In this document: one piece after another, positions 1 to 52,656 of the stretch
Numbering within the stretch: the first letter of the stretch is position 1
How the letters are laid out: each line of letters starts with the position of its first letter
DNA from: an uncultured Candidatus Saccharibacteria bacterium
GTDB lineage: Bacteria; Patescibacteriota; Minisyncoccia; Phycocordibacterales; PALSA-1337
Direction of reading: 5' to 3'
Length of the DNA stretch: 64,000 bases
Assembly (NCBI GenBank): GCA_964406895.1
Contig: CAYOTK010000004.1
Coordinates: 26,016-90,015, forward strand
The notes under the pieces: generated by a model
Told to the model about the DNA's origin: nothing
Seen by the model: only the letters and a program-made list of their open reading frames with translations
The model's database searches: none
Position numbers and translations under genes: made by a program

Positions 1-1236
1 CCCCATAGCGGGAAGACCGTCCTCATGGGTTTGCTTCGGGGCCTGTTGCCCCGGGACAAATTCATGGTTGCAGAGGCGGCACCTGATGGTGAAGGTATCA
101 CCGGATGGTCTGCCGAAGCGACGCAGGAGCTTGTCAAAGCGGTTCGCCGCAAGGGCAAGTTCCTGCCACAGTTCGTGGATTGGGTGTGCGCCTCGGTGCA
201 TAACTCCACGATGCCGATCACTCTCGTCGACTTGGGCGGAATGCTCTTGGACGATGAGGGAAAGTTCTCCGCCACGGGTGTCAGGCTGACAACGGAGAAT
301 GAACGAATCATGCGGGAATGCAGTCACTTGATCGTGATTGCGAACCCGAGCTACATGGAGTCGGCGGTGCCTACCTGGATCGCTGAAGCCAATCGTCTGG
401 GGGTCAAACCCTTGGCCATCCTCGAGTCGGTTCTTACGGGAGCTGATGATGAGATTGTAGCTGGGGGTGAACTCCCGATGCGAGCGCGTATCACGAAGCT
501 CGACCGGGAAAATCCTCCCCAATCCACAACCGCAAAGGTGGTCGTGGATTTGATCCTTTCACTCACAACAACGGAAGTCGTTGTGAAGGATGGTTCGGAA
601 GTCGCGGATGTGAATTTCCCGCGACTTGCCGAAACGCTCAACCTGCCGGTAAAAAACGGCGGGGCGGATCGCGACTGGCGACCTTCGGATCTTCCGAAAG
701 TACTGGCTGAAGCCAAAAAGCTTCTGGCCGGAAAATCGGAAGTGCGCCTTTGGGGAAACACTCCTCTCGGCGCACCGTACCATGTCCTCGCGGCAAATCT
801 GTCGCAGGAGGTTTGGTACGCTGATCCGAAAGTTCCGGGTGGCTATGTAGCTATTCCGGAAATGCCGGCCAGCACGGGAACACTCCTTGACTGGAAAGTC
901 GGGGAACGGGATGACAGCTCTCTCGTGGAGTTTGTCATTCCTGGGCAGGTGTTCAATGCGAACACTCTGCCCACACTCACCTTGCCGGAAGTGGACACTC
1001 GCAATGGTGTCGTAATTTCCGGCAAAGGACCACGTTGGCTCACCGGCGCAATCGCTCGGGCTTATGCTCGGGCAGGCGCCGCCTGGGTAGCGGTCTTTGA
1101 ACCGCGCGAGTCCAGCCGGATGCAGACTGACGGAAAGAAATGGTCGGAACACCATTCTGGCCAAGCTCCGGCAATTGTGGTCTACACGCGAGAGCGAGAC
1201 CACACCATCGGAACGATCATTCCGTTCAGTCTGTAA
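1..1236 (+). CDS. P-loop GTPase-like protein, paralog A (5' partial; continues upstream of window)
   Basis: Frame 1 is open from nt 1 and reads PHSGKTVLMG before the ATG at 25, so the Walker A/G1 lies at the window edge. ITLVDLGG is a G3-like DxxG motif. The N-terminus (PHSGK[ST]..L..LLP....FGAPDGE..W..EA.Q.LVK, hhhVDxGG) and the C-terminal block (GP.WL...IAR.YA.AGA.W.AVF.P.ES.R.Q...G.KWS..H) are homologous to ORF 7006..8715. Codon usage is GC-rich. Confidence 0.6.
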   Translation, partial: PHSGKTVLMGLLRGLLPRDKFMVAEAAPDGEGITGWSAEATQELVKAVRRKGKFLPQFVDWVCASVHNSTMPITLVDLGGMLLDDEGKFSATGVRLTTENERIMRECSHLIVIANPSYMESAVPTWIAEANRLGVKPLAILESVLTGADDEIVAGGELPMRARITKLDRENPPQSTTAKVVVDLILSLTTTEVVVKDGSEVADVNFPRLAETLNLPVKNGGADRDWRPSDLPKVLAEAKKLLAGKSEVRLWGNTPLGAPYHVLAANLSQEVWYADPKVPGGYVAIPEMPASTGTLLDWKVGERDDSSLVEFVIPGQVFNANTLPTLTLPEVDTRNGVVISGKGPRWLTGAIARAYARAGAAWVAVFEPRESSRMQTDGKKWSEHHSGQAPAIVVYTRERDHTIGTIIPFSL

Positions 1237-1370
1237 CAATTCAAAGGAATGGCAACTTCCTGATCCTTGATGGACAAATCGTTGCAGAAGCTTCGGAGAA
1301 GTGCTTCGGTTTTACTTCTCCACTTTATTCAACTCACGAATGGTTCGTGGGTTGACTGAGAAAGGTTTTC

Positions 1371-1871
1371 ATGAAAAAAGTTCTTGAGGCGATTGAGTTC
1401 GCTTTTTTGAAACACTTGGGCCAAGAGCGCCCAGGAGGTGAACCACAATTCGCACACGTGCTCCGAGTCGCCAAGTTGGCGGAGGAATGCGCGCAATGGC
1501 TGTCGCCAGAATCCGGTGAAGTTTTGGTCGTGTCGGAAATCCTCCACGATGTGTTGGAGGACACGCCGACGACGGACGCAGAAATCTGCAAGAAGTTCGG
1601 TGATGAGGTTGCCAAAATCGTCCGCGCTCTCTCGCATGAAAGCGAGGAGGAACCGGATGAGGTATATCTCCGCCGAGTAGCTCGGGGAGGTAAGATTGCA
1701 GTGTTAGCCAAACGGTTTGACCGACTGGACAACCTGCGATCGCTTGCCACAATGCCAGCGGAATTTCGCGAGCGAAAACTCGCGGAAGTTCGCTCGGCAC
1801 TTCCCATCTGGCGAGAGATCGATCCGGATGGAGCTTTGGAAATTGAGAAAGGAGTGGAGAGTTATGGATAA
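1371..1871 (+). CDS. Small HD-domain hydrolase, SpoT/Mesh1-like (small alarmone hydrolase-like)
   Basis: HLGQERPGGEPQFAHV...SEILHDVLEDTPTTDAEICKKFGDEVAKIV...VLAKRFDRLDNLRSL follows the RelA/SpoT hydrolase HD pattern block by block (H..Q.RKSGEPYI.HP / LLHDV(I/L)EDT / FG..VA.LV / KLADR.HNMR.L). It is 166 aa with no synthetase domain. Confidence 0.65.
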   Translation: MKKVLEAIEFAFLKHLGQERPGGEPQFAHVLRVAKLAEECAQWLSPESGEVLVVSEILHDVLEDTPTTDAEICKKFGDEVAKIVRALSHESEEEPDEVYLRRVARGGKIAVLAKRFDRLDNLRSLATMPAEFRERKLAEVRSALPIWREIDPDGALEIEKGVESYG

Positions 1872-2118
1872 CCGACCACTTTACGAACTCAAAATCAGAG
1901 CAACTTTTGTCCTTAGACTCCCCGAACCAGTTCGCGCTGAATTCGTGGAAATCGCGAGGGCAAAGTCTCCTTCGGCGAGTTTTGATCTCGCCCAGTTCGC
2001 CGCGCGAGCACGCGGAATTGTTAGTACGGAAGTCATTGCGATCGCAAAAGCTACGCGTTGGCTCTCAGTGATTCGCCGTGATCATGGCGATCAAGTGTTT
2101 GAACAGATTGTCGCTTAA
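1864..2118 (+). CDS. Ribbon-helix-helix (Arc/MetJ-like) DNA-binding protein
   Basis: The ATG at 1864 overlaps the HD gene stop (ATGGATAA), suggesting translational coupling. N-terminus MDNRPLYELKIRATFVLRLPEPVRAEFVEIARA matches the Arc-type beta-strand/helix signature (..R.P..L...L...A). It is 84 aa. Confidence 0.45.
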   Translation: MDNRPLYELKIRATFVLRLPEPVRAEFVEIARAKSPSASFDLAQFAARARGIVSTEVIAIAKATRWLSVIRRDHGDQVFEQIVA

Positions 2119-2136
2119 CGTGGTAACGGGGGTTTT

Positions 2137-2352
2137 ATGCCAAAGAAAAAAAAGATGCCCAACCGACGGATAAAGGTAAAAGGGTTCACATTGGAAGTAG
2201 TTTCTCCGAAATGTCCTTTTTCCGACGCTACGACGGAGGAGCGAGCAAAGGATCAGGCAGAAATGATTGCCAATGGAGGAATTCATCCTGCATGGTTCTC
2301 GGTTACAGCCGAAGACGTCCAACGCGAGTTAGATAAGGACAAGCTCAATTAG
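2137..2352 (+). CDS. Hypothetical small basic protein
   Basis: 71-aa ORF starting 19 nt after the RHH gene, same strand, with GC-rich codon usage. No recognisable motif. Confidence 0.3.
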   Translation: MPKKKKMPNRRIKVKGFTLEVVSPKCPFSDATTEERAKDQAEMIANGGIHPAWFSVTAEDVQRELDKDKLN

Positions 2353-2387
2353 GAGCACATCGCGCCACAACGCGAACAATTTCAATC

Positions 2388-2420
2388 GGCGAGTTTTTGT
2401 GGAAACTCGCCCACTTTTTT
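2388..2420 (+). terminator. Rho-independent terminator followed by an AT-rich promoter-like patch (to ~2470)
   Basis: GGCGAGUUU / AAACUCGCC stem followed by CACUUUUUU. Then cctataatatttgtttttttaaaattgtagg forms an AT-rich patch inside the otherwise GC-rich island, upstream of the MoxR gene. Confidence 0.45.
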
Positions 2421-2530
2421 GAGCCTATAATATTTGTTTTTTTAAAATTGTAGGCTCTTTGAGTAAACGCCACAAAAATGGCGACGGCTTCAAATAGGTG
2501 CGCCGGAATAAGCACCAGTGGAGAATCACA

Positions 2531-3742
2531 ATGAGTGATATCGTCCAATTGGGGATTGATCTCGCCCCCAAGGTGTCCGCTGTAATGACGGATGTCCTAA
2601 CGCGAAATCTCGGCCGTGAGGCAATTGTGCGGGCAACAATGCTCGCGCTCGTTTCGGGCAGACCGGCGTTTTTCCTGGGCAGTCCTGGGATCAACAAAAC
2701 CGGGACGGTGCAGGACATCGCCCGTCGGGTTGACGGTGCGGTGTTTTTTGACGCGCTCATGCCGACCATCGTGTCGGTTGAGCAACTGTTGGTGGAGAGC
2801 ACCTCCATCGTGGAGTCCCCGATAACTGATGGAGGTAAATCCATCAGCACCAGCGACAAGCTTGGGCGAGCAGCAAACGCGCACATTCTGTTCGCCGACG
2901 AGATTTGGAAAGCAGAACCTCGAGTTTTGCAGACCGTTTTGGACTTGGCGAAAGGCGACGGCGTTCGGCACGAGGGACGGATGATTAAAACCCCGCTTCT
3001 CGCTTTTGTGGCGGCCAGCAATGAGCTGCCGGATTCTGAAGGAAACCTCGGAGCACTGTGGTCACGAATGACCATTCGAGCCGAGGTGAAGTCCCTTGAC
3101 CGGGCCGGAAAAAAAAGCCTGGTCGCGACGCGATTGAACCGGCAACAGGCCGGCAAGTCAGCGCCGACAGGGGCGACTCTGACACTCGCTGAAGTGGAAA
3201 CGCTTCGCGAGGTTCGGCCGTTCGTGGAGGTTGGTGACGATATCGTCGAGATTGTACTCGACCTTTACCAATCGCTCCTTGACGGGGACAACGCCGGGTT
3301 CGCCTGGCTATGGGCCGACGACCGACGGTTCGGTCGTTGCATTGACGTTTTGCAGGCCAGTGCACTCCTTGACGGGAGAGCGCGAGTCGGCAAGCAGGAC
3401 CTTCGGGTTCTGGAGTTCTTGCTCTGGGACACCCCCGAGCAGATCCCCGTCGTCAAAAGCAAAATCGCCCCGCTCTGTCGGACACCACTGTCCGACGCGC
3501 AGGAGCTCGTAGACACACTCTTCGCTCCAGCGGGAGTGGTGGCGGAAGCGCTGGCTGGCGATCGGAACAAGATTGTTCCGGCCATCACCCAGTTTGAGGA
3601 GGCTGAGAAGGAACTCAGCCGGCTCGCGGGTGAGGCGAGTGGAACGGAAAAGGAGCAGATCGGCACGCTCCTCGCCAAAATTGCCGAGGAAAAACAGAAC
3701 GCGGTGGCGATCATACTTGGCGCCAAGCGTTGGAAAAAGTAG
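2531..3742 (+). CDS. MoxR-like AAA+ ATPase with atypical Walker A
   Basis: Start taken at the second ATG (MSDIVQLG), with GGAGA 8 nt upstream. Walker A is LGSPGINKTG (N replaces the conserved second G). Walker B is ILFADEIWKA. The MoxR sensor region DEI.KA.P.....LL....E......G......P..F..ASNELP parallels DEINRA...TQ.ALLEAM.E..V......-....F.VIATQNP. Confidence 0.7.
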   Translation: MSDIVQLGIDLAPKVSAVMTDVLTRNLGREAIVRATMLALVSGRPAFFLGSPGINKTGTVQDIARRVDGAVFFDALMPTIVSVEQLLVESTSIVESPITDGGKSISTSDKLGRAANAHILFADEIWKAEPRVLQTVLDLAKGDGVRHEGRMIKTPLLAFVAASNELPDSEGNLGALWSRMTIRAEVKSLDRAGKKSLVATRLNRQQAGKSAPTGATLTLAEVETLREVRPFVEVGDDIVEIVLDLYQSLLDGDNAGFAWLWADDRRFGRCIDVLQASALLDGRARVGKQDLRVLEFLLWDTPEQIPVVKSKIAPLCRTPLSDAQELVDTLFAPAGVVAEALAGDRNKIVPAITQFEEAEKELSRLAGEASGTEKEQIGTLLAKIAEEKQNAVAIILGAKRWKK

Positions 3743-3754
3743 AAAGGATCGGAA

Positions 3755-5491
3755 ATGCAAACGAAAGCCAGCCCGCTCATGCGGCAGGAGTTGCAGAAAC
3801 TCCTGGTCACGGATGCGGACGCTTTCACGGCGCTCCGCTTCCTGCGTCACCGCGAGCGCACCCCAGCGCTTTCGGAATTGGAAAACCAAGGAGGAAACGA
3901 GGTGCCCGGTTTTGCCGGAGCGCTTTGTGACCTCTACCACTCACTGTGGACGGAGACACCCAAGGTCAAGGAAGAAATTCCGGCTGACCGGCGGTTCTTC
4001 GCGGAGATTCTTCGGGGGGCGCTGGCATCGTCAGCGTTTGATGGTCTCCACGCGCAGACACAGTACTCAGACATCAAGTCGGTACTCGGCACCCTTTCCA
4101 TGGGTGATGCAGTGCTGGCAACGATGTCTCCGGAGGAAAAGAAAAATCTCCAAGACACTGCTAGTGCGCAGAAAACAGCGGATGAAGCCGAGGACGAGGC
4201 CAAACAGGCCGAGAACGAAGCTGATTCTGCTGAAGCACTCGCCCAGATGGTGGAGCAATCCGCCGGACAGGGCGAGAGCAGTGAGGGCGGACAAGAATCA
4301 TCCGGCGATCCTTCGGGAGAAGCCGAGGGTGGTTCTGGAGCGCCCAAATCAGGCAGTCCTTCAGGATCGCCAAGTGGTGGTTCACACGGAGCAGTTAGCG
4401 GAATGACGCCCGATGAAGCGCAGGCACTTGCGAACGAACTCGCTCGACAAGCGAGGGAGGCGCGTGCCAAAGCCAACTCGGCACGCGAAACTGCGAACAG
4501 CGCCAAAGAGGTCGCCGAATCCATCGCCAACCAACTTCTGGGGCAACCCGGAAGCGAGGAGGCGATGGAGAGAGCGAAAGATCTGGCGCGTCGTGGATTA
4601 GCCGCTGCTCAAAAGGCCCAAGCGAAGGTTGAGGAAGTATCCAAGACCATTGACTCGTGGGGGCTTGAGGAAGGCGAGCTCGTCCAGATGGGCATTCCGG
4701 AGGCCATGGGGCTTCTAGAAAAAATGCGCCAGAGCACGGCGCTCAAGAAGTTTGCTCAACTCCTGGGCCGAATCAAAAAGATTGCCGCTCGAAAAGCGGC
4801 GTCCGATGATAAAGCCGATGGAGTGCGAGTCACGAAGCCGGAAACGGGTCATGATATCAAAAGAGCGCTTCCGAGGGAGCTCACTGCTCTCTCGCACCCA
4901 TCGCTTCGTTTCGGCGCACTGACGCGCTGGAGCCGAGGAGAACTCGCTCTTCGGGGCGAGGAATCAAAGAGGAAATTGGGCGAGGGGCCGGTCGTGGTCT
5001 GCGAAGACTCGTCAGGCTCTATGGACGGGGTTAAGCAACAGTGGGCAAAGGCTGTAGTTTTAGCACTGGCCCATTACGCAAAGCTTCGTAACCGATCGTT
5101 CGCGTGGATCATGTTTGACACTGCTATCCAGCGGAGTCGCATTTACACTCGCGGGCGATTAACGCCCAAGGACCTTTTGGAAATCGCCGAGTCACGCTCA
5201 GGAGGTGGGACGAATTTTGAAATCCCCCTTCGCGAAGCCGTCAAAGTGATTCGTGGTGCTGGCCTTAAGAAAGCCGACATTGCGTTCATCACCGACGGGG
5301 ATTGCGCGATTTCGGACGAATTCGTTCGGGAGTTTGGTGGGGTCAAGAAGGCATTGGAAGTCAACGTGTTCGCAGTTCTCTGCGATGTTGGCCATACTGC
5401 CGAGGCGACCATTGCAAAATTCTCGGACAGAATTGAACAGGCTTCATCTTTCAACGAGGATGAAGCGGAACAATTTTTCCAAAAACTCTGA
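3755..5491 (+). CDS. von Willebrand factor A (vWA) domain protein with acidic/coiled-coil N-terminal region
   Basis: Starts 12 nt after MoxR, with AAAGGA upstream. The C-terminal vWA domain has a complete MIDAS: VVVCEDSSGSMDG (DxSxS), SRSGGGTNF (T) and AFITDGD (D). The N-terminal ~380 aa are Ala/Glu/Ser/Gly-rich low-complexity and coiled-coil. Confidence 0.75.
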   Translation: MQTKASPLMRQELQKLLVTDADAFTALRFLRHRERTPALSELENQGGNEVPGFAGALCDLYHSLWTETPKVKEEIPADRRFFAEILRGALASSAFDGLHAQTQYSDIKSVLGTLSMGDAVLATMSPEEKKNLQDTASAQKTADEAEDEAKQAENEADSAEALAQMVEQSAGQGESSEGGQESSGDPSGEAEGGSGAPKSGSPSGSPSGGSHGAVSGMTPDEAQALANELARQAREARAKANSARETANSAKEVAESIANQLLGQPGSEEAMERAKDLARRGLAAAQKAQAKVEEVSKTIDSWGLEEGELVQMGIPEAMGLLEKMRQSTALKKFAQLLGRIKKIAARKAASDDKADGVRVTKPETGHDIKRALPRELTALSHPSLRFGALTRWSRGELALRGEESKRKLGEGPVVVCEDSSGSMDGVKQQWAKAVVLALAHYAKLRNRSFAWIMFDTAIQRSRIYTRGRLTPKDLLEIAESRSGGGTNFEIPLREAVKVIRGAGLKKADIAFITDGDCAISDEFVREFGGVKKALEVNVFAVLCDVGHTAEATIAKFSDRIEQASSFNEDEAEQFFQKL

Positions 5492-5502
5492 AAGAGGAAA
5501 TT

Positions 5503-6156
5503 ATGGAAAATATCGTTGTAACGCTTCGAGCTGACCGGGGCAACAAGTTCGATGAAGACGGTCAGTGTATCGGGACCCATGAAAGGTCAATCGTCTTCAT
5601 GCCACGCGAGGTCAAGCCTGACCAAGTTGTCCGCGTCCGACTCATACCGATCATGGATCGAATGACGGGGAAAGAAAGAGTGGACAAAGGTGGCAGAGTT
5701 ATGTACCGCGCCGAACTCGCACCAGCGGAACTGCCGAGGAAATGCGAGGAAGACATTGCAAGGCAAGCAAAAGCCTTGCGGCAAGGCAAACCCTTTCCGA
5801 AGGATCAAGGCGAGGCACTCGCCAAATCCATATTTGGTAAGCGATTGGAACGTACTGACCACAAGTGGTACTACTTTTTCGCTGATGCCATCTTGGGGTC
5901 GCGGTTTTCACCCGCTGCCCTATTGATCTTAGAGGGGATGCCGATGTCTTCTGGTAGCTCATACGATGAGCTTATGGGGTGGTTGATCGGTAAAACTCGC
6001 TGGGGTTACAACTGGTACCACTTCCGAGAATCAGGAAAGATCGGAAAGGATGAGGTTCCGGAGTTTCCAGAAATAGAGCTCCGGACACTTATCGCGCGCC
6101 TTGAAAAAGGCGAATGGGTCATCGCAGACCTCTTGGTTAAGGAGGAACCGCGATGA
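5503..6156 (+). CDS. Hypothetical protein with TRAM-like (OB-fold) N-terminus; candidate vWA-MoxR-associated partner
   Basis: Starts 11 nt after the vWA gene. N-terminus VVTLRADRGNKFDEDGQCIGTHERSIVFMPREVKPDQVVRVRLIPI resembles the TRAM pattern (G.G.....g.vvFV....PGE.V.v.I). The rest is unassigned. Confidence 0.4.
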   Translation: MENIVVTLRADRGNKFDEDGQCIGTHERSIVFMPREVKPDQVVRVRLIPIMDRMTGKERVDKGGRVMYRAELAPAELPRKCEEDIARQAKALRQGKPFPKDQGEALAKSIFGKRLERTDHKWYYFFADAILGSRFSPAALLILEGMPMSSGSSYDELMGWLIGKTRWGYNWYHFRESGKIGKDEVPEFPEIELRTLIARLEKGEWVIADLLVKEEPR

Positions 6157-6191
6157 AAGGTTTTTGGTGCTGCAACACCAGTGGTTAAACC

Positions 6192-6235
6192 GGACGAATT
6201 TTTGCAGAAATTCGTCCACTTTATTCAATTCATAA
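6192..6235 (+). terminator. Hairpin after the TRAM-like gene (possible terminator)
   Basis: GGACGAAUUU / AAAUUCGUCC 10-bp stem, followed by ACUUUAUUCAAUUC, which is only moderately U-rich. Confidence 0.35.
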
Positions 6236-6327
6236 CTTCGGTTACGGATTGATAGAGTTTCAGCTCGAACCGCGTCCGCAGGCGCAACAATTTGCGGAAA
6301 AATTGCCCTTGAAAGGAGGGCTAACAG

Positions 6328-6774
6328 ATGAATTACAAAATCATCCCCGGATCCGTCGGGGTCCGGAAGTCGTTTCAGGTTACCTGCGGACTGCGCGTCG
6401 GGTACGACGCAGCCGCGGTGACTCACACCGGCGAGGAGGCCGTCGAGTCCGTCCTCGAACAATTGAAGTTCCGTGCGGCTGCGGGACTGCCGTACCTAAC
6501 CGGTACAATCACAACCGGAGAGGTCGTGTATGCATGGTCGGATGGGCCGGGCAAGGCCGGCGGCGGGCACGAGCCCGTCATCCGGTACGAGGGAGAAGTC
6601 AACCCCCTGTACAACAAGAATCTTCTCGAGAATCACGACGAGGTCGTCGCGATCTTGAACGAGCTCGGCATCGCCCTCGGAGCGGCGCTCGGGCAAACGC
6701 GGATCTACCTGGCCTACGACGGCCAGACGTGGATCCTCGAGGCGGAGAAGGCGGTTACCCCGACGGGTAACTAA
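6328..6774 (+). CDS. Hypothetical protein
   Basis: 148-aa ORF on the same strand within the island, with GGAGGG upstream. No recognisable motif. Confidence 0.35.
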   Translation: MNYKIIPGSVGVRKSFQVTCGLRVGYDAAAVTHTGEEAVESVLEQLKFRAAAGLPYLTGTITTGEVVYAWSDGPGKAGGGHEPVIRYEGEVNPLYNKNLLENHDEVVAILNELGIALGAALGQTRIYLAYDGQTWILEAEKAVTPTGN

Positions 6775-7005
6775 TTTCTCCAAAGGTTGTGTGAACCTTC
6801 AAAACATTCTGCGTCCCGCGTGGCGCAAAAAAATTTGGTTAACGGTGAGTGTATGCGGACACCCACAAAACTTTCAGCACCGGTCGGGTTGATCGGTGCT
6901 GGACTTTATTGAGTCCGTCCGCTTTTAGCGGGTTGATTCAAAAAGTTAAAGACAGCGACGAGAGTCGCCCGAGCCAGTCGGGTACTGGCATGAAAGGATA
7001 GCGGA

Positions 7006-8715
7006 ATGAAAAATATCCGCCGAGTAGTGGTTTGCGGACCCCCGCATTCGGGAAAGTCTGTGTTCCTAGCCAATCTCCAACGGCTATTGCCGGTTGAGCA
7101 TCACATGCTCATTTTCGGCGCTCCCGACGGTGAGTGGCATTGGAGCAACGAGGCCAACCAGAGCCTCGTCAAAAACCTGCGGGAAAAGAAAGGCTTCTCG
7201 CAGGACTGGTGCCGTCAAATCGTAACAGCGATCCAGAGTGCCGATCAGAAATTGGTACTCGTGGATACGGGTGGCAAGCGATTGCCACCGAACGATGAGA
7301 TCTTCTCGTCGTGCGATGGTTTCATCATTATTTCCTCATCGCCGGAGGAAATGATTGAGTGGCGGAAGTTCGGCGAGAGTTTCGGATGCCAGTGCTTGGC
7401 CGAGCTTGACTCGGTTTTGCATGGAACGTCAGAGCTCTATCCAGACCGCAAGGACGGCATCATCCGCGGTCAGATATGCGGTCTCGAGCGCGGGAAGACC
7501 ATTGAGTCGCCTGTGATGGACGCGGTGGCCAGTCGGCTTTGCGAAGTCATCAAAGCTAACGCTGAAATGACCAAGGCCGAACTTCTCGCCAACATCAATG
7601 GCGTGAAGTTGGTAGACCATCTGGGAATCACAGATCGCTCGGATCCGTATCTCGGAGTGAGGCCCTGGCACACGGCTCCTGCACTCAAACTCACGGCCGT
7701 GGCGCGCCGACTGGAAATCGTGCGAATCTGGAATGTCCGCACAAGTTTCCTGTCCTGCGCCTTCGCCTCGATGCTCCCAGGAAAAGTCCAGCTCTTCGGC
7801 GTGTCCGAGGGGTATGTGGAATTACCTGAAGTCGTTCCGGCTGGGAACGCTTCCGGCGATGGGGTGGAATGGGAAGTTACCGAACTGGCCGAGTATACCT
7901 TAGTGGAATTCCGCAAAACACGATTCTTCACTAAGGAACTGCTGGCGAGCGTGGTACCGCCCGTAGTCAATTCTCGCAAGGGGGTTGTGCTGTCTACGGA
8001 CGGTCCGCCCATCTGGCTAGACGCGACGATCGCAAGGTCGTATGCAAAAGCTGGCGCACCATGGATTGCTGTCTTCGTTCCGGTTGAGTCCGGACGAGTC
8101 CAGCCGTCTTTGGACGGCCAGAAATGGAGTGATGTGCACCCACCAGACGGACCGTGCGTGATAATTTACGGTCCGGAAAATCGGCTGGGAGAAATCATTC
8201 CCGTGCCGATTGCCCTGCTTAAATGGCAAGGGGGTGGACGTAAGTGGCGACTCGGGTCGGGCGAGCCAGTCGTGGATCGACAGAACAGCCACCTTGCCAC
8301 GCACGGCACGGTTTTGCCGTTCGTGGGTGAAGCCTTGCTCCAGATTCAATCCGGAGGACAAGACTTCATCGCCGAAGAAGTAGGTTTTGGCGAAGCCATC
8401 GGGCAGACGATTTGTGTCGCCACCCGCGAGGATGACGACATCGTTTTCGCCCAGCGGCCAAACCGAGCCGGACTCACACGGTTCGTGAAAGGTCGCGAGC
8501 CGGAGTCGTGCTCGACGGTTGTGGTTTGTCTAAAGCGAGCGCGGGAGGGCGGATACATCCTCCTTACTGCGTACATTGGTAGACGCACACCGGCCGAACC
8601 GTGGGACATGGAATGGGCAACGGATCAGTCCGTGCCTTTCTGGAATTCCCATGCTCTGATTTGGGGGCACGAATCAACAATACCAGGAACTGAAACGAAG
8701 GTTTGTTCTTGGTGA
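7006..8715 (+). CDS. P-loop GTPase-like protein, paralog B
   Basis: G1 is VVVCGPPHSGKS and G3-like is LVLVDTGGK. The N-terminal domain and a C-terminal block (GPPIWLDATIARSYAKAGAPWIAVFVPVESGRVQ...GQKWSDVH) are paralogous to ORF 1..1236. An additional ~170-aa C-terminal extension is present. Confidence 0.65.
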   Translation: MKNIRRVVVCGPPHSGKSVFLANLQRLLPVEHHMLIFGAPDGEWHWSNEANQSLVKNLREKKGFSQDWCRQIVTAIQSADQKLVLVDTGGKRLPPNDEIFSSCDGFIIISSSPEEMIEWRKFGESFGCQCLAELDSVLHGTSELYPDRKDGIIRGQICGLERGKTIESPVMDAVASRLCEVIKANAEMTKAELLANINGVKLVDHLGITDRSDPYLGVRPWHTAPALKLTAVARRLEIVRIWNVRTSFLSCAFASMLPGKVQLFGVSEGYVELPEVVPAGNASGDGVEWEVTELAEYTLVEFRKTRFFTKELLASVVPPVVNSRKGVVLSTDGPPIWLDATIARSYAKAGAPWIAVFVPVESGRVQPSLDGQKWSDVHPPDGPCVIIYGPENRLGEIIPVPIALLKWQGGGRKWRLGSGEPVVDRQNSHLATHGTVLPFVGEALLQIQSGGQDFIAEEVGFGEAIGQTICVATREDDDIVFAQRPNRAGLTRFVKGREPESCSTVVVCLKRAREGGYILLTAYIGRRTPAEPWDMEWATDQSVPFWNSHALIWGHESTIPGTETKVCSW

Positions 8716-9295
8716 AAAAAGTGTTAGAAAGTGCACCCAAAAAACTTTCCTCCGCTACAGAGCGTTGTGGCAAACATACGCATATGTAATTGTTCTTTTG
8801 GTCAACGGTAGTTCTGATGCGTCAGGGTTACCACAACAAAATTCCCAGCACCGCCTTGGTCGGTGGCGCTGGACTCAATTGAGTTCATGATTTTAGAGGA
8901 TCGTGAATTCATAGAGTATTACGCAGTGAAATAAGCATTAAAACAAAAAGAAGGCCCCATAAAGCTATAGGCCAGCATGACGGAATCAGATCAGGAAAAA
9001 GTGCGAGTGATTGCAAAATCTCTCTCCTCTAACCCTTCGACAAGCTCAGGATTATCCCGAGCAAAGTCGAGGGACAAACACGATTTCTTGGTTTGTCATC
9101 CAGTCGTTATGACCTGTAGCTTTATGGGGCTTTTTCATAATTCAAGACAATATACATTGCCACAATGTCAACATGGTTATTAGGTTGCTTAAAATATGGC
9201 TTATTATATAATTGATGCATGGTTCGAAACTCGATCCACCTTCACACTAGTGAATGGTAGGCCGAGACCATTTATTAGCATTAACAATAAATATA

Positions 9296-9568
9296 ATGAA
9301 CAAAGCAAGCATTGTAGAAGCAGTTCATGCAGTTCTCGGTGGAACAAAGGTTCAGGCCGAGCAAGCAGTAGAAGCAGTGATCAACAGTGTCATTGATTCT
9401 CTCAAGAAGGGTGAGGAGGTCTCAATCGCAGGTCTCGGCATCTTCTCGGTCAAACAGCGTGCAGCACGCGAGGCTCGTAACCCAAGGACAGGTGAATCCA
9501 TAAAGGTTCCTGCCATGAAGGTTCCTAAGTTCCGCGCCGCAAAGGCATTGAAGGATGCAGTAAAATAA
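9296..9568 (+). CDS. hup: HU family nucleoid DNA-binding protein
   Basis: MNKASIVEAVHAVLGGTKVQAEQAVEAVINSVIDSLKKGEEVSIAGLGIFSVKQRAAREARNPRTGESIKVPAMKVPKFRAAKALKDAV matches the HU/IHF signature (GFG.F.....R.GRNP.TGE...IPA...P.F.AGK.LKD). Start taken at the internal ATG (MNKAS). Confidence 0.85.
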   Translation: MNKASIVEAVHAVLGGTKVQAEQAVEAVINSVIDSLKKGEEVSIAGLGIFSVKQRAAREARNPRTGESIKVPAMKVPKFRAAKALKDAVK

Positions 9569-9598
9569 TACTTCAACTTCGTTTCTTACAGAAAAACA

Positions 9599-9635
9599 AG
9601 AACCACCCTGATTTTTAAGGGGTGGTTTTTGTTTT
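9599..9635 (+). terminator. Rho-independent terminator downstream of hup
   Basis: GAACCACCC / GGGUGGUU stem followed by UUUUGUUUUG. Confidence 0.5.
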
Positions 9636-9680
9636 GATAAAAAATTATGTACAGAGAGATGATATAATACGATCACAATC

Positions 9681-10433
9681 ATGGACATATCGCCAGACAG
9701 AAAACTTGTAACCAGTATGGAAATCGGCCCAGAAAGATTACCGAAAATCGAAGTCGACGTTTATAAAGACGCGGTAAATTACTGGGGTGCATGTAATCAT
9801 TCGATTCAATCTAAAGACTGGACGACTAGTATGGATCCCGATGTTGTTGAAAAAATTCGTGGCAAAACCAGAGAAGAGGCTGATAAGTTCCTCATCCCAT
9901 ATTTACAAGAAAAACATTTAGAAAAAACGCTCGAAATAGAGCGGTTTAAACAATTTGCACTCAAAGAGTTTAGCGAAAAATTTGAGACTGCATGTAATAA
10001 ACTTAAGCAGGTAATGTGTGGATATGAGATTTATAGAAATGATTTTACAATATTTATCACAACAATAAGTCGTCAACCCTACAACAAGGAAAACGGCTGG
10101 ATTTGGATGGGTATCAATAATACAGATCCGATACGCACATTTTTGCATGAATTATGTCATTTTCAATTTATTCATTATTGGCAAGAAAATACAGATTCGC
10201 CAGTAAGCAAACTTAGTCCTGAAGAATTCAATTATTTGAAAGAATCCTTAACAATGATTCTTGATGATGATTTCTTCCCTATTATACGAGCAGTAGACAG
10301 GGGCTATGAAGCACACCAAAGTTTTCGCGCCGTCTTAAAAGAATTCTGGTCAAAAAACAAAGATTTCAACGCGCTCGTTGATTATGCACTTAAAAGACTG
10401 CCGGAATTTATTTCAAAACCACAAAAAAATTAG
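9681..10433 (+). CDS. Hypothetical protein with HExxH motif (possible zinc metallopeptidase-like)
   Basis: 250-aa ORF with AT-rich codon usage. Contains FLHELCHFQF (HExxH). No further family assignment possible by eye. Confidence 0.5.
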   Translation: MDISPDRKLVTSMEIGPERLPKIEVDVYKDAVNYWGACNHSIQSKDWTTSMDPDVVEKIRGKTREEADKFLIPYLQEKHLEKTLEIERFKQFALKEFSEKFETACNKLKQVMCGYEIYRNDFTIFITTISRQPYNKENGWIWMGINNTDPIRTFLHELCHFQFIHYWQENTDSPVSKLSPEEFNYLKESLTMILDDDFFPIIRAVDRGYEAHQSFRAVLKEFWSKNKDFNALVDYALKRLPEFISKPQKN

Positions 10434-10454
10434 TATGTTCGTATTTTGTATACC

Positions 10455-11039
10455 CTATTTCCTCGCTACAAATTGAAACACATGCCCTGAGCGCACCTCA
10501 TGGTCTGCGTCTTTGTCATCATTCTCTTTCTCAACAAAATCCAAAATTTCTAAATCTTGCAATAATTTCTCGACCCTTTCCCTACTTGGATAAGTCTTAT
10601 CTAAACCACTATTACCAGCAGATTTGTCACGATTACCGAATAATTGACAGCAGAAAATACCGTCTTTCTTCAAACTATTCTTGATTTTCTCGAAAACCAT
10701 ATCGAAATTATTAGGGCTGCAAAAGTTCAAAGAAAACATTGCCGAAGCCAAGTCGTATTCATTTTCTGGAAATTGAAAATCCTCAAAAGATTCGATGACG
10801 GGGTGTAATTTATTATTGGCCAAACTGGTCGCCTCTTGAGCCAAAAGAGGACTATTATCAATAACCGTTACTTCGAAACCTTGTTTCAATAAATAAACAC
10901 AGTCTCTCAATGCCCCACCACCAATATCGATCGCCCTCCCTTTTGCTTTTACATACTTTTGAGCCTCAACAAGAAAAGAATATGGTGGCAAATTTCGAGT
11001 ATATTCATAATATTGAGACCAATCTGTTGTTTTTGCCAT
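10455..11039 (-). CDS. Class I SAM-dependent methyltransferase
   Basis: Motif I AIDIGGGALRD and a downstream acidic motif (VTVIDNSP). Overall TehB/UbiE-like fold pattern over 194 aa. Confidence 0.7.
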   Translation of the reverse strand: MAKTTDWSQYYEYTRNLPPYSFLVEAQKYVKAKGRAIDIGGGALRDCVYLLKQGFEVTVIDNSPLLAQEATSLANNKLHPVIESFEDFQFPENEYDLASAMFSLNFCSPNNFDMVFEKIKNSLKKDGIFCCQLFGNRDKSAGNSGLDKTYPSRERVEKLLQDLEILDFVEKENDDKDADHEVRSGHVFQFVARK

Positions 11040-11214
11040 AAGTTATATTTCTACTACTCACTTTTTCTACAAAATTTATTACAATACATTCATGACCTAA
11101 TAAATCTCTTATGAGAATGATCTGAAAAAATCTTAACACCGGAACAAATCAGTAGTGCCTGCACCGAGCGAGGAACAAACCCTCATCTTAGGCACAAACT
11201 TCAACGAATCGAGG

Positions 11215-11285
11215 TGCGGGCAGGGAGAATCGAACTCCCGTCTACACATTGGAAGTGTGTTATTCTACCACTAAACCATGCCCGC
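11215..11285 (-). tRNA. tRNA-Gly (anticodon UCC)
   Basis: The reverse complement reads GCGGGCAUGGUUUAGUGGUAGAAUAACACACUUCCAAUGUGUAGACGGGAGUUCGAUUCUCCCUGCCCGCA. It has a 7-bp acceptor, a GUUU/GAAU D-stem, an ACACA/UGUGU anticodon stem with loop CUUCCAA, and T-arm GGGAG-UUCGAUU-CUCCC. CC is encoded after the discriminator but the final A is not. Confidence 0.8.
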
Positions 11286-11363
11286 AATATTCAGTTATTT
11301 AAGAACAAAGTCAATACTAGCAATTATTTTTCGATATAACAAGACACTAATTTATCCAAAAAA

Positions 11364-11804
11364 TTATTTTTTATTTTCGTTTTCACTCTTTCCATCAACA
11401 ATCACCTCTTTGATCTCATCAATCTCCTTTTTCATCTCCTTGATTGTTGTTCTGATCTGCCCTATCTGCATTTCTTCCTCTTCTATTTCCTTCTCAGTTT
11501 TGTCCGTAACCTTCTTTTGCCCCTTCAAACCACTAATCAATATGGTGTCCCCTATAAAATAAGAAACAAACAATCCGGTAGCAAGCAAAACAATCAACAC
11601 CAAGATAAGACTTATAGGTTCATAGAATATGATGCCCCACCACCCTCCTTTGGCCTGAAGTATGTCGGCAGTATGCCAAACACCTCTCCAAAACAAAACA
11701 ATAGCCGTACCCCCTATCAACGTATAAAGAATAGGATAACGACTGAGGTGAACCCTGATCACATCCTCCAATTTATCAAAGAAATTTACTACTCTTTTTA
11801 TCAT
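11364..11804 (-). CDS. Hypothetical small membrane protein with Lys/Glu-rich C-terminus
   Basis: 146-aa ORF with two hydrophobic segments (LIGGTAIVLFW, ISLILVLIVLLATGLFV). AT-rich codon usage consistent with the host. Confidence 0.4.
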   Translation of the reverse strand: MIKRVVNFFDKLEDVIRVHLSRYPILYTLIGGTAIVLFWRGVWHTADILQAKGGWWGIIFYEPISLILVLIVLLATGLFVSYFIGDTILISGLKGQKKVTDKTEKEIEEEEMQIGQIRTTIKEMKKEIDEIKEVIVDGKSENENKK

Positions 11805-11831
11805 TTTTATGATTAATTTACTTAATATTCT

Positions 11832-11907
11832 TGGTCGGAGCGCCGGGATTCGAACCCGGAGTCACCTGTACCCAAAACAGGTATGTTAGCCGTTACACCA
11901 CGCTCCG
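11832..11907 (-). tRNA. tRNA-Pro (anticodon UGG), CCA encoded
   Basis: The reverse complement reads CGGAGCGUGGUGUAACGGCUAACAUACCUGUUUUGGGUACAGGUGACUCCGGGUUCGAAUCCCGGCGCUCCGACCA. Anticodon loop is UUUGGGU, T-arm is CCGGG-UUCGAAU-CCCGG, and the 3' CCA is genomically encoded. Confidence 0.8.
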
Positions 11908-11949
11908 TATGCAATGATATTAGCATAATATATCGAAATTGCACACGAA

Positions 11950-12348
11950 TCACAAAATAATATCCTGAATCCAATTGATATTCCCTGCCCTATTATCAGA
12001 ATCGATGTGAATTGCCAAAACGTGAAAATAAAATCTGATCTCATCACTTATTTTATTTTCATTCAAGTATGTTTCTATCATTCTGCGAATATGCTTCACC
12101 TTGAAACCATGAACATTCTCTTCCGGCCTATGGATGTCTGTTACATTTCCTATATTAAAAGTCGTGCTTTTTACCTCGAAGAAATGTATAGCACCATCCT
12201 TGAAACCAACAATATCTAATTCTCCCCATTTACGTTGGTAATTTCTAGCTATAATAGAAAAATTATTTTTCTTCAAGAAATCGCAAGCAATATCTTCTCC
12301 AATCTTTCCAAAGTATTTATTTTGTTTTTTGTTTGCATTATTTAACAT
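11950..12348 (-). CDS. YraN/UPF0102 family endonuclease-like protein
   Basis: 132-aa protein with GELDIVGFKDGAIHFFEVKS, matching the UPF0102 core (GE.DI.....L.FVEVK.R). Confidence 0.6.
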   Translation of the reverse strand: MLNNANKKQNKYFGKIGEDIACDFLKKNNFSIIARNYQRKWGELDIVGFKDGAIHFFEVKSTTFNIGNVTDIHRPEENVHGFKVKHIRRMIETYLNENKISDEIRFYFHVLAIHIDSDNRAGNINWIQDIIL

Positions 12349-12692
12349 AAATGTCCTGACTTTTAAACTTGAATAATAATAGTACGGCCCAAATTAGCCA
12401 CATTCACAGTATTCACAAATAATAGGACCAAAAAACACGAATATTAGCCATATTTCCTGTCTTTTATCACCACTATTAACAGACTTATCCACAGTTTGTC
12501 CTTTCAGCCCACGAATTTAAGCCGTATTTATCCGACTTATATGTGTATAAAGTACTGTCGTTTATACTTTACAATTCGTACTAATATTCCGCTCTAATAA
12601 AGCATTGTCTAACAAAAAACTACACACTTATTGTGCCTGCACCGAGCGAGGTGCTAAATCGAAATTATTTACTAATCACGAAAAAATTGAGG

Positions 12693-13075: not shown

Positions 13076-13139
13076 GCATTGACATCATACCCTACTTGCA
13101 GTATTTGTGAAGTACTAAAATTAGTATATACTTGATTAC

Positions 13140-14609: not shown

Positions 14610-14639
14610 TTTGTATAAAAGACAGAGTTATCCACAGTG

Positions 14640-52631: not shown

Positions 52632-52656
52632 TTTGTTTATTATTATTGGTAATTAT

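Follow-up and report, generated by a model that had tools for sequence, protein, structure and literature searches.

A GC-rich cassette of Csx3-type and MoxR-VWA genes at a variable locus of an AT-rich, apparently patescibacterial chromosome

The window, meaning the whole 64-kb stretch of DNA analysed here, begins inside a GC-rich gene cassette that comprises a Csx15-like protein, two P-loop-Csx3 proteins, a SpoT-like HD hydrolase, a MoxR ATPase and its VWA partner, and small unassigned proteins. Every ORF with a homologue or domain match within 1-8715 lies on the + strand, so that the preliminary description of all ORFs there as + strand is borne out for ORFs of this kind. The first (1..1236, +; GC3 0.62) encodes paralogue 1 of the P-loop NTPase-Csx3 proteins, 420 aa in full, with matches to Pfam Cas_csx3 (E 1.6e-12) and PADLOC C3a67 'AAA-Csx3' (E 3e-47); its first nine codons lie outside the window, the true start being at position 2969 of L001, a 25,956-bp Logan contig (SRR12487045) that matches window 1-9364 at 100% and holds the full-length ORF. 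There follows a small HD-domain hydrolase (HD_4) of 166 aa (1371..1871, +; Pfam HD_4 E 2e-12), RelA/SpoT-hydrolase-like in that it matches the N-terminal region of NCBIfam spoT_relA (E 1e-17, far under the family cut-off), with a further match to PHROG 990 phosphohydrolase (E 8e-24) and conservation in the related loci L008, L010, L013, L014, L017 and L024. Two small + strand ORFs of 84 aa (1864-2118) and 71 aa (2137-2352), called in L001 at 4859-5113 and 5132-5347, gave no match in family searches, and the former recurs at 46-57% identity (tblastn) in L008, L010, L013, L014, L020 and L024.

The central part of the cassette encodes a MoxR-class AAA+ ATPase of 403 aa (2531..3742, +), 87% identical to its L017 homologue, which matches Pfam bpMoxR at 67.7 bits (cut-off 27), AAA_lid_8 and AAA_5, and also the RavA model at E 3e-32, yet far under the equivalog cut-off. 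Its VWA-domain partner (578 aa; 3755..5491, +), whose gene always adjoins MoxR in relatives, has a low-complexity middle section rich in Ala, Glu and Ser, and matches the ViaA model (E 1e-11), PHROG 24053 (E 7e-54) and, just under the cut-offs, Pfam VWA_CoxE and VWA_2. A conserved 217-aa protein (u217; 5503..6156, +), always encoded downstream of the VWA gene, has homologues in the same six loci as the HD hydrolase and no match in Pfam, NCBIfam, PADLOC, PHROG or PDB. Family searches, Pfam included, likewise gave no match for a 148-aa protein (u148; 6328..6774, +; GC3 0.80), found by tblastn at 68% identity in L017 and 50% in L008; in relatives its gene directly adjoins that of the 569-aa protein encoded by the last island gene (7006..8715, +). 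The latter combines a P-loop NTPase and a Csx3 domain with a RelE/BECR-like domain at its C terminus. The Csx3 fold can be superposed on AfCsx3. The 64-kb window contains no CRISPR array, and no cas genes beyond Csx3/Csx15-type accessory domains were recognised among the called genes of the loci.

Composition sets this block apart from its surroundings. Window 1-8715 has 55% GC and a GC3 of 0.62, against 38% and 0.35 in the remainder of the window. GC in 1-kb windows is 0.51-0.60 over 1-9000 and 0.33-0.45, mostly 0.36-0.40, past 9000, and in 200-nt steps values of 0.56-0.62 give way to 0.45 at the 8715 stop codon, which ends the last island gene, and have dropped to 0.35-0.42 by 9100. The seven island genes have GC1/2/3 of 0.64/0.45/0.62 and the 31 host genes 0.46/0.36/0.35, with no overlap between the GC3 spans (0.55-0.80 vs 0.26-0.43), and the island proteins have more Ala, Arg, Gly, Val and Trp and less Lys, Ile, Asn and Tyr. 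Tetranucleotide usage correlates between island and host at r = 0.62, whereas in a control 11 island-sized host segments, each compared with the remaining host, gave r of 0.78-0.89. The preliminary description of a GC-rich block abutting AT-rich DNA is thus upheld by GC windows, GC3, amino acid content and tetranucleotides alike.

The bounds of the variable segment follow from L034, a related genome with the same flanks around a different insert: the segment measures ~10.1 kb, starts 1.3 kb ahead of window position 1 and extends to window ~8800-8824. On its left lie, in order, a large gene with a GNAT domain, a TrmB-family regulator gene in divergent orientation, and a conserved leader of ~450 nt that appears to be structured, with a promoter-like site (TTGACA-17-TATTAT) upstream of the leader; on its right lies an HU gene with upstream hairpins. 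These flanking genes and the leader recur in L034 (relative to the window and L001, 90% aa identity for TrmB, 100% for HU, 79-81% nt identity in the flanks), where exactly the same points enclose a GC-rich insert of 1.66 kb with two ORFs unrelated to the window cassette. On the left, homology to L034 stops precisely where the conserved hairpin has its 3' end (L001 1685-1687); on the right, within a boundary zone at 8716..8823, it restarts at ~8800 (MAFFT) to 8824 (BLAST), and a JGI contig, L037, departs from the window sequence after 8809. The GC-rich block is the current occupant of a variable locus in an AT-rich small-genome chromosome, the host of which appears to be Patescibacteria/CPR-like, judging by synteny and the taxonomy of relatives. 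The earlier proposal of a horizontally acquired island with its other boundary upstream therefore gains support, that boundary lying only ~1.3 kb upstream of position 1 and the acquisition being backed by the different insert of L034 and by low synonymous divergence of the cassette relative to host genes.

The host flank to the right carries a short GC-rich hairpin (CCAGCACCGCC...GGTGGCGCTGG; 8845..8872, +), which is kept in L034, where two changes in the 3' arm improve pairing. A match of this hairpin to isrB was rejected as spurious, reflecting only the stem. Further into the flank, a long, highly structured hairpin element with a U run at its end occupies 8951..9133 (+); its inverted-repeat arms (8951-8986 and 9098-9133) are 36 nt long and 78% complementary, the + strand folds at -91.7 kcal/mol (z = -10.8 vs shuffles), and no Rfam family matches it. 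The stems are nearly identical in L034, with a 45-nt inner arm missing. This element is probably a structured terminator or small RNA upstream of the promoter of the HU/IHF-type DNA-binding protein gene (9296..9568, +; Pfam Bac_DNA_binding, E 2e-30), the first host gene right of the island, the protein being identical and the 5' UTR 100% conserved in L034. The preliminary description was right that a long inverted repeat exists, but the repeat belongs to the host flank and not to the junction or the island: its position is 150-330 nt into the conserved flank, and it is present in L034, a relative without this island.

At least eight other contigs, nearly all with a Patescibacteria label, have a homologous cassette adjoining TrmB, and these cassettes are usually GC-richer than the host. 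Contigs from other metagenomes that measure 159 kb, 206 kb, 209 kb and 1.03 Mb hold them in the same position. Cassette and host GC3 are 0.64 vs 0.33-0.41 in the 1.03-Mb contig and 0.72 vs 0.38-0.44, 0.67 vs 0.29-0.42 and 0.69 vs 0.38-0.44 at three further loci; cassette and host do not differ in one host of 63% GC, and at L015 the polarity is reversed, the whole block being AT-richer than its flanks. GC-richness of the cassette recurs in many hosts, and the adjacent TrmB gene follows host GC. In L017 and L005 the TrmB gene and cassette lie between yebC and ruvB, two genes that are adjacent at window 52101-53670.

In comparison with the nearest relative, fourfold-site differences for AAA-Csx3, MoxR and VWA are 0.41-0.50, against a saturation expectation of 0.69-0.72 (z -6 to -11), whereas those for host genes and TrmB, at 0.69-0.78 (|z| <= 1.1), are saturated. 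With core genes below saturation and host genes saturated, sequence divergence indicates that the cassette has moved between these lineages after their hosts split; it is also a mosaic, synonymous sites in HD, u217 and u148 being nearly saturated. Patescibacteria commonly carry genomic islands and exchange genes within the phylum (PMC12455944). The source is probably a pool of GC-rich cassettes circulating among Patescibacteria, with exchange probably effected by recombination in the conserved flanks following DNA uptake. A simple recent import from a GC-rich donor fits the recurrent GC-richness less well, as a search of the relatives gave just a single GC-rich host, and the generic high-GC donor implied by the preliminary description lacks support, the 569-aa protein family having come up almost exclusively in Patescibacteria genomes. 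We consider it very likely that the block is a real, horizontally exchanged cassette of ~10 kb in a CPR recombination hotspot, carrying a CRISPR-accessory-like signalling module with no CRISPR nearby.

Three other accounts of the block were weighed. A chimeric assembly or binning join, in which a foreign GC-rich contig was fused to an AT-rich CPR contig at ~8.8-8.9 kb, had been offered as an alternative at the outset and would explain the abrupt compositional step; several short-read contigs, moreover, stop less than ~500 nt from the island borders (ends at window 9195, 9220 and 9364; L003 begins at 9340 and L035 at L001 1492), showing that the assembly graph branches there. Such breaks, however, are expected from strain-level cassette polymorphism (L034, L037). 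The 26-kb contig L001 continues upstream of the block into AT-rich DNA (GC 0.31-0.40) with the TrmB gene, so the block is embedded, not terminal, and has AT-rich host DNA on both sides. Both junctions lie within JGI contig L035 (3300045330), which matches at 100%, the right one is also crossed by contigs from SRR23702522 and JGI 3300045378, and a 102-kb NCBI contig holds the host RuvB protein and island proteins together, although some of these supporting contigs from other assemblies may share the same or related samples with the source assembly; homologous cassettes adjoin orthologous TrmB and leader in many unrelated assemblies, among them the 1.03-Mb contig. On these sequence grounds a chimeric join, extremely improbable, appears effectively excluded. 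It is also very unlikely that the cassette is old and vertically inherited with TrmB, its high GC held by codon or mRNA selection or by GC-biased gene conversion. It does adjoin TrmB in nearly all relatives and is GC-rich in hosts of 35% to 63% GC while TrmB follows host GC; ordering the loci by identity to the window gives roughly the same ranking for TrmB and for the cassette, and the AAA-Csx3 tree makes the GC-rich state look ancestral. Yet relative to L017 and L005 the core genes are far below synonymous saturation and every host gene, TrmB included, is saturated; the L005 AAA-Csx3 is 83% identical to that of the window and its TrmB just 34-36%; the close relative L034 is without the cassette at the same site; and the AT-richer block of L015 again points to transfer. 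We know of no precedent for selection holding a GC3 of 0.62 across 9 kb in a genome of GC3 0.35, which also counts against vertical inheritance.

Also very unlikely is a reading of the block as the cargo of a self-mobile or hitch-hiking element, or as what remains of one, be it a prophage, an ICE or IME, or a user of the host Xer recombinase (IMEX). Homologues in PHROG or in phages exist for HD, MoxR, VWA and the C-terminal domain of the 569-aa protein, and the window encodes a four-tRNA cluster (11213-13075), a VirB4-type conjugation ATPase (38352-40166) and a XerD-like tyrosine recombinase (18262-19209, - strand), so that the earlier statement that no integrase is visible holds for the island but not for the window. 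The phage homologues, however, occur singly, in jumbo phages or archaeal viruses, and form no syntenic blocks, and the Xer gene, 9.5 kb from the segment and of host composition, looks like a housekeeping gene. Between the borders, Pfam, NCBIfam, PADLOC and PHROG searches revealed no integrase, relaxase, capsid, terminase or replication genes; an IMG/VR search was without match, and no mobility gene, att duplication or circular form of the cassette was found. The ~10.1-kb cassette lacks a recombinase and is not inserted at a tRNA, and no direct repeat of at least 10 nt is common to both junctions.

The block would be transcribed as a single + strand operon from a promoter upstream of the leader under TrmB control, and its gene content suggests a conflict or defence module that works through a nucleotide second messenger. 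AAA-Csx3 has been described as a type III accessory family with no known function (PMC6546367), and Csx3/Crn3 and Csx15 are cA4 ring nucleases (10.1101/2024.09.24.614671; PMC13148439). In such a module, cyclic oligoadenylate-type signals would be ligands or substrates of the Csx3 and Csx15-like domains, with the HD hydrolase removing the signal, the RelE/BECR-like C-terminal domain serving as RNase effector and MoxR-VWA as an ATP-driven sensor or remodeller. Rather unlikely is a non-defence role as a housekeeping-type MoxR-VWA chaperone or metal-insertion operon (RavA-ViaA or NorQ-NorD like) with accessory nucleotide-binding proteins: the best-known role of such pairs is that of maturation chaperone (PMC9976466, PMC3893208), the top NCBIfam matches are the RavA and ViaA models, and no signal-generating cyclase was found in the loci, but the top Pfam model, bpMoxR, was defined from conflict systems (PMC7159879). 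A toxin-like fold and three domains of the CRISPR type III ancillary type also occur in the cassette, which is horizontally exchanged and whose locus varies between close relatives, with HicAB and ParE toxin-antitoxin genes there in L005. Such features are typical of defence islands rather than housekeeping chaperones.

Among known systems, hotspot genomic or defence islands share with this locus foreign composition, conserved host genes on either side and evidence of lateral transfer, different content at identical points in close relatives (window and L034), and defence-type genes, including toxin-antitoxin modules at the same locus in L005. Unlike them, the present locus has no integrase, tRNA target or flanking repeat, its left border is the 3' end of a conserved structured leader beside the TrmB gene, the TrmB-leader-cassette unit lies at different chromosomal sites in related genomes, and the occupants are GC-rich in most hosts. 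Integron-like platforms also place interchangeable, recombinase-less, possibly promoterless cassettes behind a fixed platform with a promoter-like site, and L005 has a second short copy of the platform hairpin ahead of the cassette genes; here, however, the platform gene is a TrmB-type regulator rather than an integron integrase, no attC-like repeats were identified, and the cassette is a multi-gene operon. The AAA-Csx3 (C3a67)/Csx3-AAA accessory proteins of type III CRISPR-Cas (Shah et al. 2018, PMC6546367) and the Crn3/Csx3 ring nuclease are likewise close, by the same order of P-loop NTPase and then Csx3 domain, strong PADLOC HMM matches and the superposition on AfCsx3, but near the cassette cas10, other cas genes and a CRISPR array are absent, the 569-aa form adds its RelE/BECR-like domain, MoxR, VWA and HD genes surround the genes for these proteins, and the hosts are Patescibacteria, mostly without CRISPR-Cas (PMC12455944). 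The CARF-RelE effectors of type III CRISPR (Csm6-RelE class; Cami1) also count among the closest known systems. The MoxR-vWA ternary conflict systems (Kaur, Burroughs, Iyer, Aravind 2020, PMC7159879), in whose survey Csx3 was noted as an occasional effector domain and CPR genomes were outside the statistical analysis, resemble the cassette in the above-cut-off bpMoxR match, the VWA gene directly downstream and the associated effector-like and Csx3 domains; they differ in that no beta-propeller third component was found here, the conserved third gene being u217, and in that HD and P-loop-Csx3 genes are the constant partners of the cassette.

Measures of GC, codon position and tetranucleotide usage all bear out the abrupt junction, proposed in the preliminary description, between a GC-rich block and an AT-rich chromosome. 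In 1-kb windows, GC is 0.51-0.60 across positions 1-9000 and mostly 0.36-0.40 beyond (0.55 for the island vs 0.38 for the host), and at 200-nt resolution the drop sets in at the stop codon (8715) that closes the last GC-rich gene and ends by about 9100. GC at the three codon positions is 0.64/0.45/0.62 in island genes vs 0.46/0.36/0.35 in 31 host genes, with disjoint GC3 ranges (0.55-0.80 and 0.26-0.43, respectively). As expected for such a shift, the island proteins are raised in Ala, Arg, Gly and Val and lowered in Lys, Ile, Asn and Tyr. Tetranucleotide deviations of island and host correlate at r = 0.62, against 0.78-0.89 for equally sized host segments compared with the remaining host. By GC, GC3 and tetranucleotides the block therefore has the foreign composition of a genomic island. 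All ORFs with homologues or domain matches in 1-8715 lie on the + strand, in agreement with the single-strand coding originally noticed.

Two origins had been offered for this step: a chimeric assembly or binning join, or a horizontally acquired island whose other boundary lies upstream of the window. The choice between them comes from other assemblies of the same DNA, recovered by exact-protein look-ups. A Logan contig of 25,956 bp (L001, from SRR12487045) is identical to window 1-9364 and extends 2,995 bp further upstream, where GC returns to 0.31-0.40 near L001 1930 and a TrmB-family regulator gene has host-like GC3 (0.30). AT-rich DNA thus lies beyond both ends of the GC-rich block, which is therefore an insert. 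Both junctions are spanned at 100% by a JGI contig (L035; 3300045330, 10,724 bp), the right junction is crossed by contigs from SRR23702522 (L002) and JGI 3300045378 (L036), and a single NCBI contig of 102,364 bp encodes the host RuvB together with the island MoxR and Csx3 proteins. Several short-read contigs end within a few hundred bases of the borders, which fits strain-level variation at the locus. Because Logan and JGI contigs repeat both junctions at 100%, the chimera was rejected, and the locus is a documented case, relevant to genome curation, of an abrupt GC step in a metagenome-assembled genome that is not a mis-join. The acquired island, by comparison, is borne out by the AT-rich upstream DNA as well as by the allelic locus and the synonymous-site discordance considered below.

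The borders were defined with an allelic locus from a related genome (L034, a 45-kb Logan contig from SRR12901027), which encodes an identical HU protein, the product of the first host gene to the right of the island. Compared with the window genome, L034 shows 79-81% nucleotide identity in the flanks and amino-acid identities of 90% for TrmB and 100% for HU, and the order of genes is the same: large GNAT-domain protein, TrmB, conserved non-coding region, insert, HU. The insert itself is 1.66 kb and holds two GC-rich ORFs (180 and 292 aa) that are unrelated to any island gene and gave no signal in Pfam, NCBIfam, PADLOC, PHROG or PDB. The occupant is thus replaced between relatives at conserved flanks, as in a genomic island. 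Left homology stops at L001 1685-1687, precisely where a conserved hairpin has its 3' end (...AAGAGGGGTTG), and right homology restarts between window positions of about 8800 (MAFFT) and 8824 (BLAST), so that the variable segment measures about 10.1 kb, of which the last 8.8 kb or so lie in the window. A JGI contig (L037; 3300045331) tracks the last island gene and its 3' UTR to 8809 and then, directly after TTGGTCAACGGT, continues into 38 nt of unrelated AT-rich sequence (L037 2412-2449); this may be a third or alternative right junction variant or a contig-end artefact.

The long inverted repeat noted earlier near the junction exists and is strongly folded, but it belongs to the host and is not an island terminus. 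Its arms lie at 8951-8986 and 9098-9133, and on the + strand the region folds at -91.7 kcal/mol (z = -10.8 vs shuffles). The element, of about 183 nt (8951-9133, +), has a near-perfect 23-bp closing stem and inner arms and is followed by a U run. L034 retains this long hairpin, a short GC-rich hairpin at 8845-8872, and both the promoter and the 5' UTR of HU; in its copy of the long hairpin the stems are almost identical and one 45-nt inner arm is cleanly deleted. It is this conservation that assigns the repeat to the host. A MITE or att site was considered and rejected, as the repeat is single-copy in the window and the compared loci and is kept in L034, which lacks the island. Situated upstream of the HU promoter, the element probably serves as a small RNA or a structured terminator.

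Neither the borders nor the island ORFs carry the integrase or transposase, tRNA target or flanking direct repeats by which genomic islands are also recognized. The borders are not at a tRNA, no island ORF has a recombinase domain, and no direct or inverted repeat of at least 10 nt is common to both ends, which share a weak GAGGG(G)TTG resemblance only. The large protein upstream of TrmB was rejected as a recombinase, having a GNAT acetyltransferase domain only. The initial statement that no integrase is visible holds for the island but not for the window, in which a XerC/XerD-like tyrosine recombinase gene (Phage_integrase plus N-terminal SAM-like domain) lies at 18262-19209 (-), at a distance of 9.5 kb from the island, and probably has a housekeeping role. 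Genes for four tRNAs (Gly-TCC, Pro-TGG, Gly-GCC and Arg-TCG) cluster at 11213-13075 (-), 2.4-4.3 kb to the right of the island, in a stretch that partly differs in L034, with rearranged BLAST pieces and one tRNA region 96% identical.

On the left, a conserved non-coding region of about 450 nt separates TrmB from the first cassette gene (L001 1240-1690, or 1.3-1.8 kb upstream of window position 1). Copies detected by nhmmer (E 1e-8 to 1e-16) occur in L034 (7485-7936), in L017 (5740-6200) and partly in L005 (4262-4641), the last two being the closest relatives, and in a further locus, L014 (7195-7735). Within the leader, an invariant 17-mer, CAATGTTATTCCTCTTC, pairs with ARGAGGGGTYGYAT, one hairpin has a GNRA cap, and compensatory changes occur in several helices. 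The last leader hairpin has its 3' end at the point of cassette exchange. Upstream of the leader, the + strand has a promoter-like site close to consensus (TTGACA-17-TATTAT, extended -10). A covariance model of the 3' domain recovered weaker copies in L013 and L005, where they immediately precede the cassette, plus a further copy in L014, and no leader in L008, L010, L015, L020, L023 or L024; the leader is therefore not universal to the cassette family. The further L014 copy (2313-2453, E 2e-4) is situated in a stretch of about 1.7 kb without long ORFs (1800-3550), downstream of a second TrmB paralogue and followed by GC-richer sequence. Rfam searches at gathering and permissive thresholds, covering the window, the 3' and 5' junctions and seven loci, returned tRNAs only and no family for either boundary RNA, the leader included; matches to isrB, SNORA17 and miRNA families were dismissed as chance. 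Comparison of the five sequences is suggestive of an undescribed structured leader RNA or ncRNA.

From the 274-aa gene just upstream of the window to the closing 569-aa gene, the cassette forms an operon-like array. The 274-aa product is a marginal Csx15 match (NCBIfam 36.4 bits vs a cut-off of 35). It is followed by a 420-aa P-loop-Csx3 protein, a 166-aa HD_4 (SpoT-hydrolase-like) protein, two small ORFs of 84 and 71 aa, a MoxR ATPase (bpMoxR, 67.7 bits vs a cut-off of 27) and, starting 13 nt downstream of MoxR, a 578-aa VWA protein, whose VWA Pfam scores are slightly under their cut-offs and which matches ViaA at E 1e-11. Next come 217-aa and 148-aa proteins, to which no search (Pfam, NCBIfam, PADLOC, PHROG or PDB) assigned a function, and last the 569-aa P-loop-Csx3 protein. 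No recombinase, cyclase or cas gene beyond the Csx3/Csx15-type accessory domains was detected in the island.

Pfam, PADLOC, PDB profile and fold agree in supporting the Csx3 identity. Both Csx3 proteins match PADLOC C3a67 'AAA-Csx3' (the 420- and 569-aa proteins giving E 3e-47 and 2.5e-49 over about 355-380 residues), and the profile of the 569-aa family matches AfCsx3 in PDB. Crn3/Csx3 NCBIfam scores of 28-33 lie under the cut-off of 55.4, the likeness being one of fold. In the AlphaFold model of the 569-aa protein (pLDDT 79), a P-loop domain resembling MinD, MeaB and FtsY-type NTPases precedes a Csx3 domain, the arrangement that defines AAA-Csx3, and the latter superposes on AfCsx3, including its cA4 complex (6yud, 3wzg), with target-normalised TM-scores of 0.84-0.86. 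Residues ~420-569 (window 8263-8715) appear to adopt a RelE/BECR-like fold in the model. This C-terminal domain shares about 42% identity with hypothetical proteins (phrog_23674) that stand alone in Rak2-like jumbo phages of about 355 kb infecting Erwinia, Serratia, Yersinia and Pectobacterium, as exemplified by Serratia phage BF gp376 (L038 3953-4423); the phage copies could be effectors or decoys.

About 60 full-length relatives of the 569-aa protein, at 50-86% identity, were found. Scanning a single genome for each GTDB species located the family in five genomes: four are labelled Patescibacteria, Candidatus Adlerbacteria or Candidatus Kaiserbacteria, and the fifth is a MAG labelled Gammaproteobacteria in which the flanks are AT-rich. 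All long contigs examined have the cassette directly beside an opposite-strand TrmB-family gene, beyond which most loci have a large GNAT-domain gene. The usual order in relatives is AAA-Csx3(569), HD, the 84-aa protein, MoxR, VWA and the 217-aa protein, the pair formed by the 148-aa and 569-aa genes being at the beginning in relatives and at the end in the window. A second TrmB-family gene in the window, at 15362-16129 (-), shares only about 25% identity with the TrmB genes associated with islands at related loci, and no leader RNA copy was found beside it. At L005/L026 (4666-9052), two HicA/HicB pairs and a ParE-like toxin gene replace HD-MoxR-VWA at a TrmB-flanked locus, and the leader hairpin recurs as a short second copy (5155-5251) directly before the first cassette gene; on these grounds the locus behaves as a mosaic defence/toxin-antitoxin hotspot.

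In most loci the cassette exceeds its host in GC: GC3 is 0.64 vs 0.33-0.41 on a 1.03-Mb contig (L010), 0.72 vs 0.38-0.44 in L013, 0.67 vs 0.29-0.42 in a Kaiserbacteria locus (L016), 0.69 vs 0.38-0.44 in L020 and 0.64 vs 0.41-0.55 in L017. It equals the host in a Patescibacteria MAG of 63% GC (L008/L012). At L015 the polarity is reversed, the large gene, TrmB and cassette (3974-16599) being AT-richer (GC3 0.39-0.52) than the flanks (0.61-0.64), a sign that the block may also move as a whole. A neighbour-joining tree of the 569-aa protein shows the GC-rich state to be widespread, with the two low-GC cassettes forming one derived clade. The recurrence of GC-rich occupants, the unrelated L034 insert included, suggests a GC-rich cassette pool, which explains that recurrence only in part.

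Evidence for transfer comes from position and from divergence. In L017 and L005, TrmB and the cassette separate yebC from ruvB; the window has an uninterrupted run of ruvC, yebC, ruvB, pilB and tsaE (51584-56755), and the chromosomal site of the TrmB-cassette unit therefore differs among related genomes. Between the window and L017, host proteins are 79% (RuvB), 67% (YebC), 58% (PilB), 46-47% (RuvC), 42-47% (TsaE) and 54% (TrmB) identical, vs 85% for AAA-Csx3, 87% for MoxR and 86% for VWA in the cassette core; HD and the 217- and 148-aa proteins, at 65-68%, are not clearly discordant with host genes. Synonymous divergence was judged by fourfold-site permutation, since NG86 dS, at 1.0-1.3 for the core, is incomputable for the saturated host genes. 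Fourfold-site differences in AAA-Csx3, MoxR and VWA are 0.41-0.50 vs a composition-matched saturation of 0.69-0.72 (z = -6 to -11), whereas host genes including TrmB are at saturation (0.69-0.78, |z| <= 1.1). Divergence of these three genes is thus discordant with that of the host, as in a genomic island, and the window and L017 cassette cores share a later ancestor than their hosts. L005, which is without MoxR-VWA, has an AAA-Csx3 83% identical to that of the window and a TrmB only 34-36% identical. Together, the L034 allele and the synonymous data support lateral exchange among Patescibacteria, in which most detected transfers are reported to be intra-phylum (PMC12455944).

A viral vehicle was also weighed. 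PHROG matches are confined to HD, ATPase, VWA and one unknown family, short of what marks a prophage or viral element, and phage tblastn matches are to isolated genes; IMG/VR yielded no cassette relative, and a viral origin was rejected. Lateral exchange of the cassette might use recombination in the conserved flanks after DNA uptake, or a recombinase in trans; the window has the XerD-like gene at 18262-19209. The window encodes a VirB4/CD1110-type conjugative-transfer ATPase (38352-40166), inside a long same-strand (+) gene block of host-like GC (~30-48 kb), and a PilB/GspE-type pilus ATPase (54330-56003); it is possible that these represent DNA-uptake or transfer machinery relevant to cassette exchange.

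As for function, the cassette would be expressed as a single + strand operon driven from the leader, under TrmB control, and would act in conflict or defence. Csx3/Crn3 and Csx15 are ring nucleases (10.1101/2024.09.24.614671, PMC13148439), and the Csx3 and Csx15-like domains may accordingly bind or degrade messengers of the cyclic oligoadenylate type, with the RelE-like domain as putative effector and the HD protein presumably clearing nucleotides. MoxR-VWA may be an ATP-driven sensor or remodeller, by analogy with the role proposed for MoxR-vWA conflict systems (PMC7159879). No Cas10 or CD-NTase that could supply the signal was found in the loci. A bolder reading, which we consider improbable, is that TrmB and the ~450-nt structured leader form a Patescibacteria cassette-docking platform, with the hairpin as exchange point, that swaps recombinase-less GC-rich cassettes between lineages, and that its commonest occupant is a CRISPR-independent, cyclic-oligonucleotide-type immune system specific to ultra-small bacteria; its parts may then be a P-loop-Csx3-RelE-like effector, Csx15-like and HD signal removers and a MoxR-VWA sensor.

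CPR/Patescibacteria have tiny genomes, reportedly for the most part without CRISPR-Cas (PMC12455944), and their phage resistance and gene exchange are poorly understood. The locus offers a recurrent, laterally exchanged cassette of type III ancillary domains, a putative toxin-like fold, HD and MoxR-VWA at a regulator-flanked hotspot. Should it be functional, it would represent an immune or conflict system specific to the lineage, in which second-messenger sensor domains work without Cas10. GC-rich occupants across hosts of differing GC, and the structured-RNA border, provide handles on gene flow in uncultivated bacteria.

Several known systems overlap with the cassette. It shares Csx3/Csx15-type sensor domains, Csx15 marginally, with type III CRISPR-Cas accessory modules, but lacks their adjacency to cas10, another cas gene or an array: the 64-kb window has no CRISPR array, and no cas gene other than the Csx3/Csx15-type accessory domains was recognized within 10 kb on either side at any locus. 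With the MoxR-vWA-beta-propeller ternary systems it has in common a bpMoxR-type ATPase and an adjacent vWA gene; the third component differs, the conserved third gene of the cassette encoding the 217-aa protein, and no cassette protein has a propeller or WD40 match. Scores remain well below the RavA-ViaA equivalog level (112 bits vs a cut-off of 681 for RavA, 45 vs 500 for ViaA). An integron is likewise a poor fit, the platform gene being TrmB, with no adjacent integrase. The island belongs to a familiar type, that of genomic or defence islands in hotspots; less usual are its combination of genes, its restriction to CPR in the collections searched, its structured-leader border and its repeated compositional discordance.
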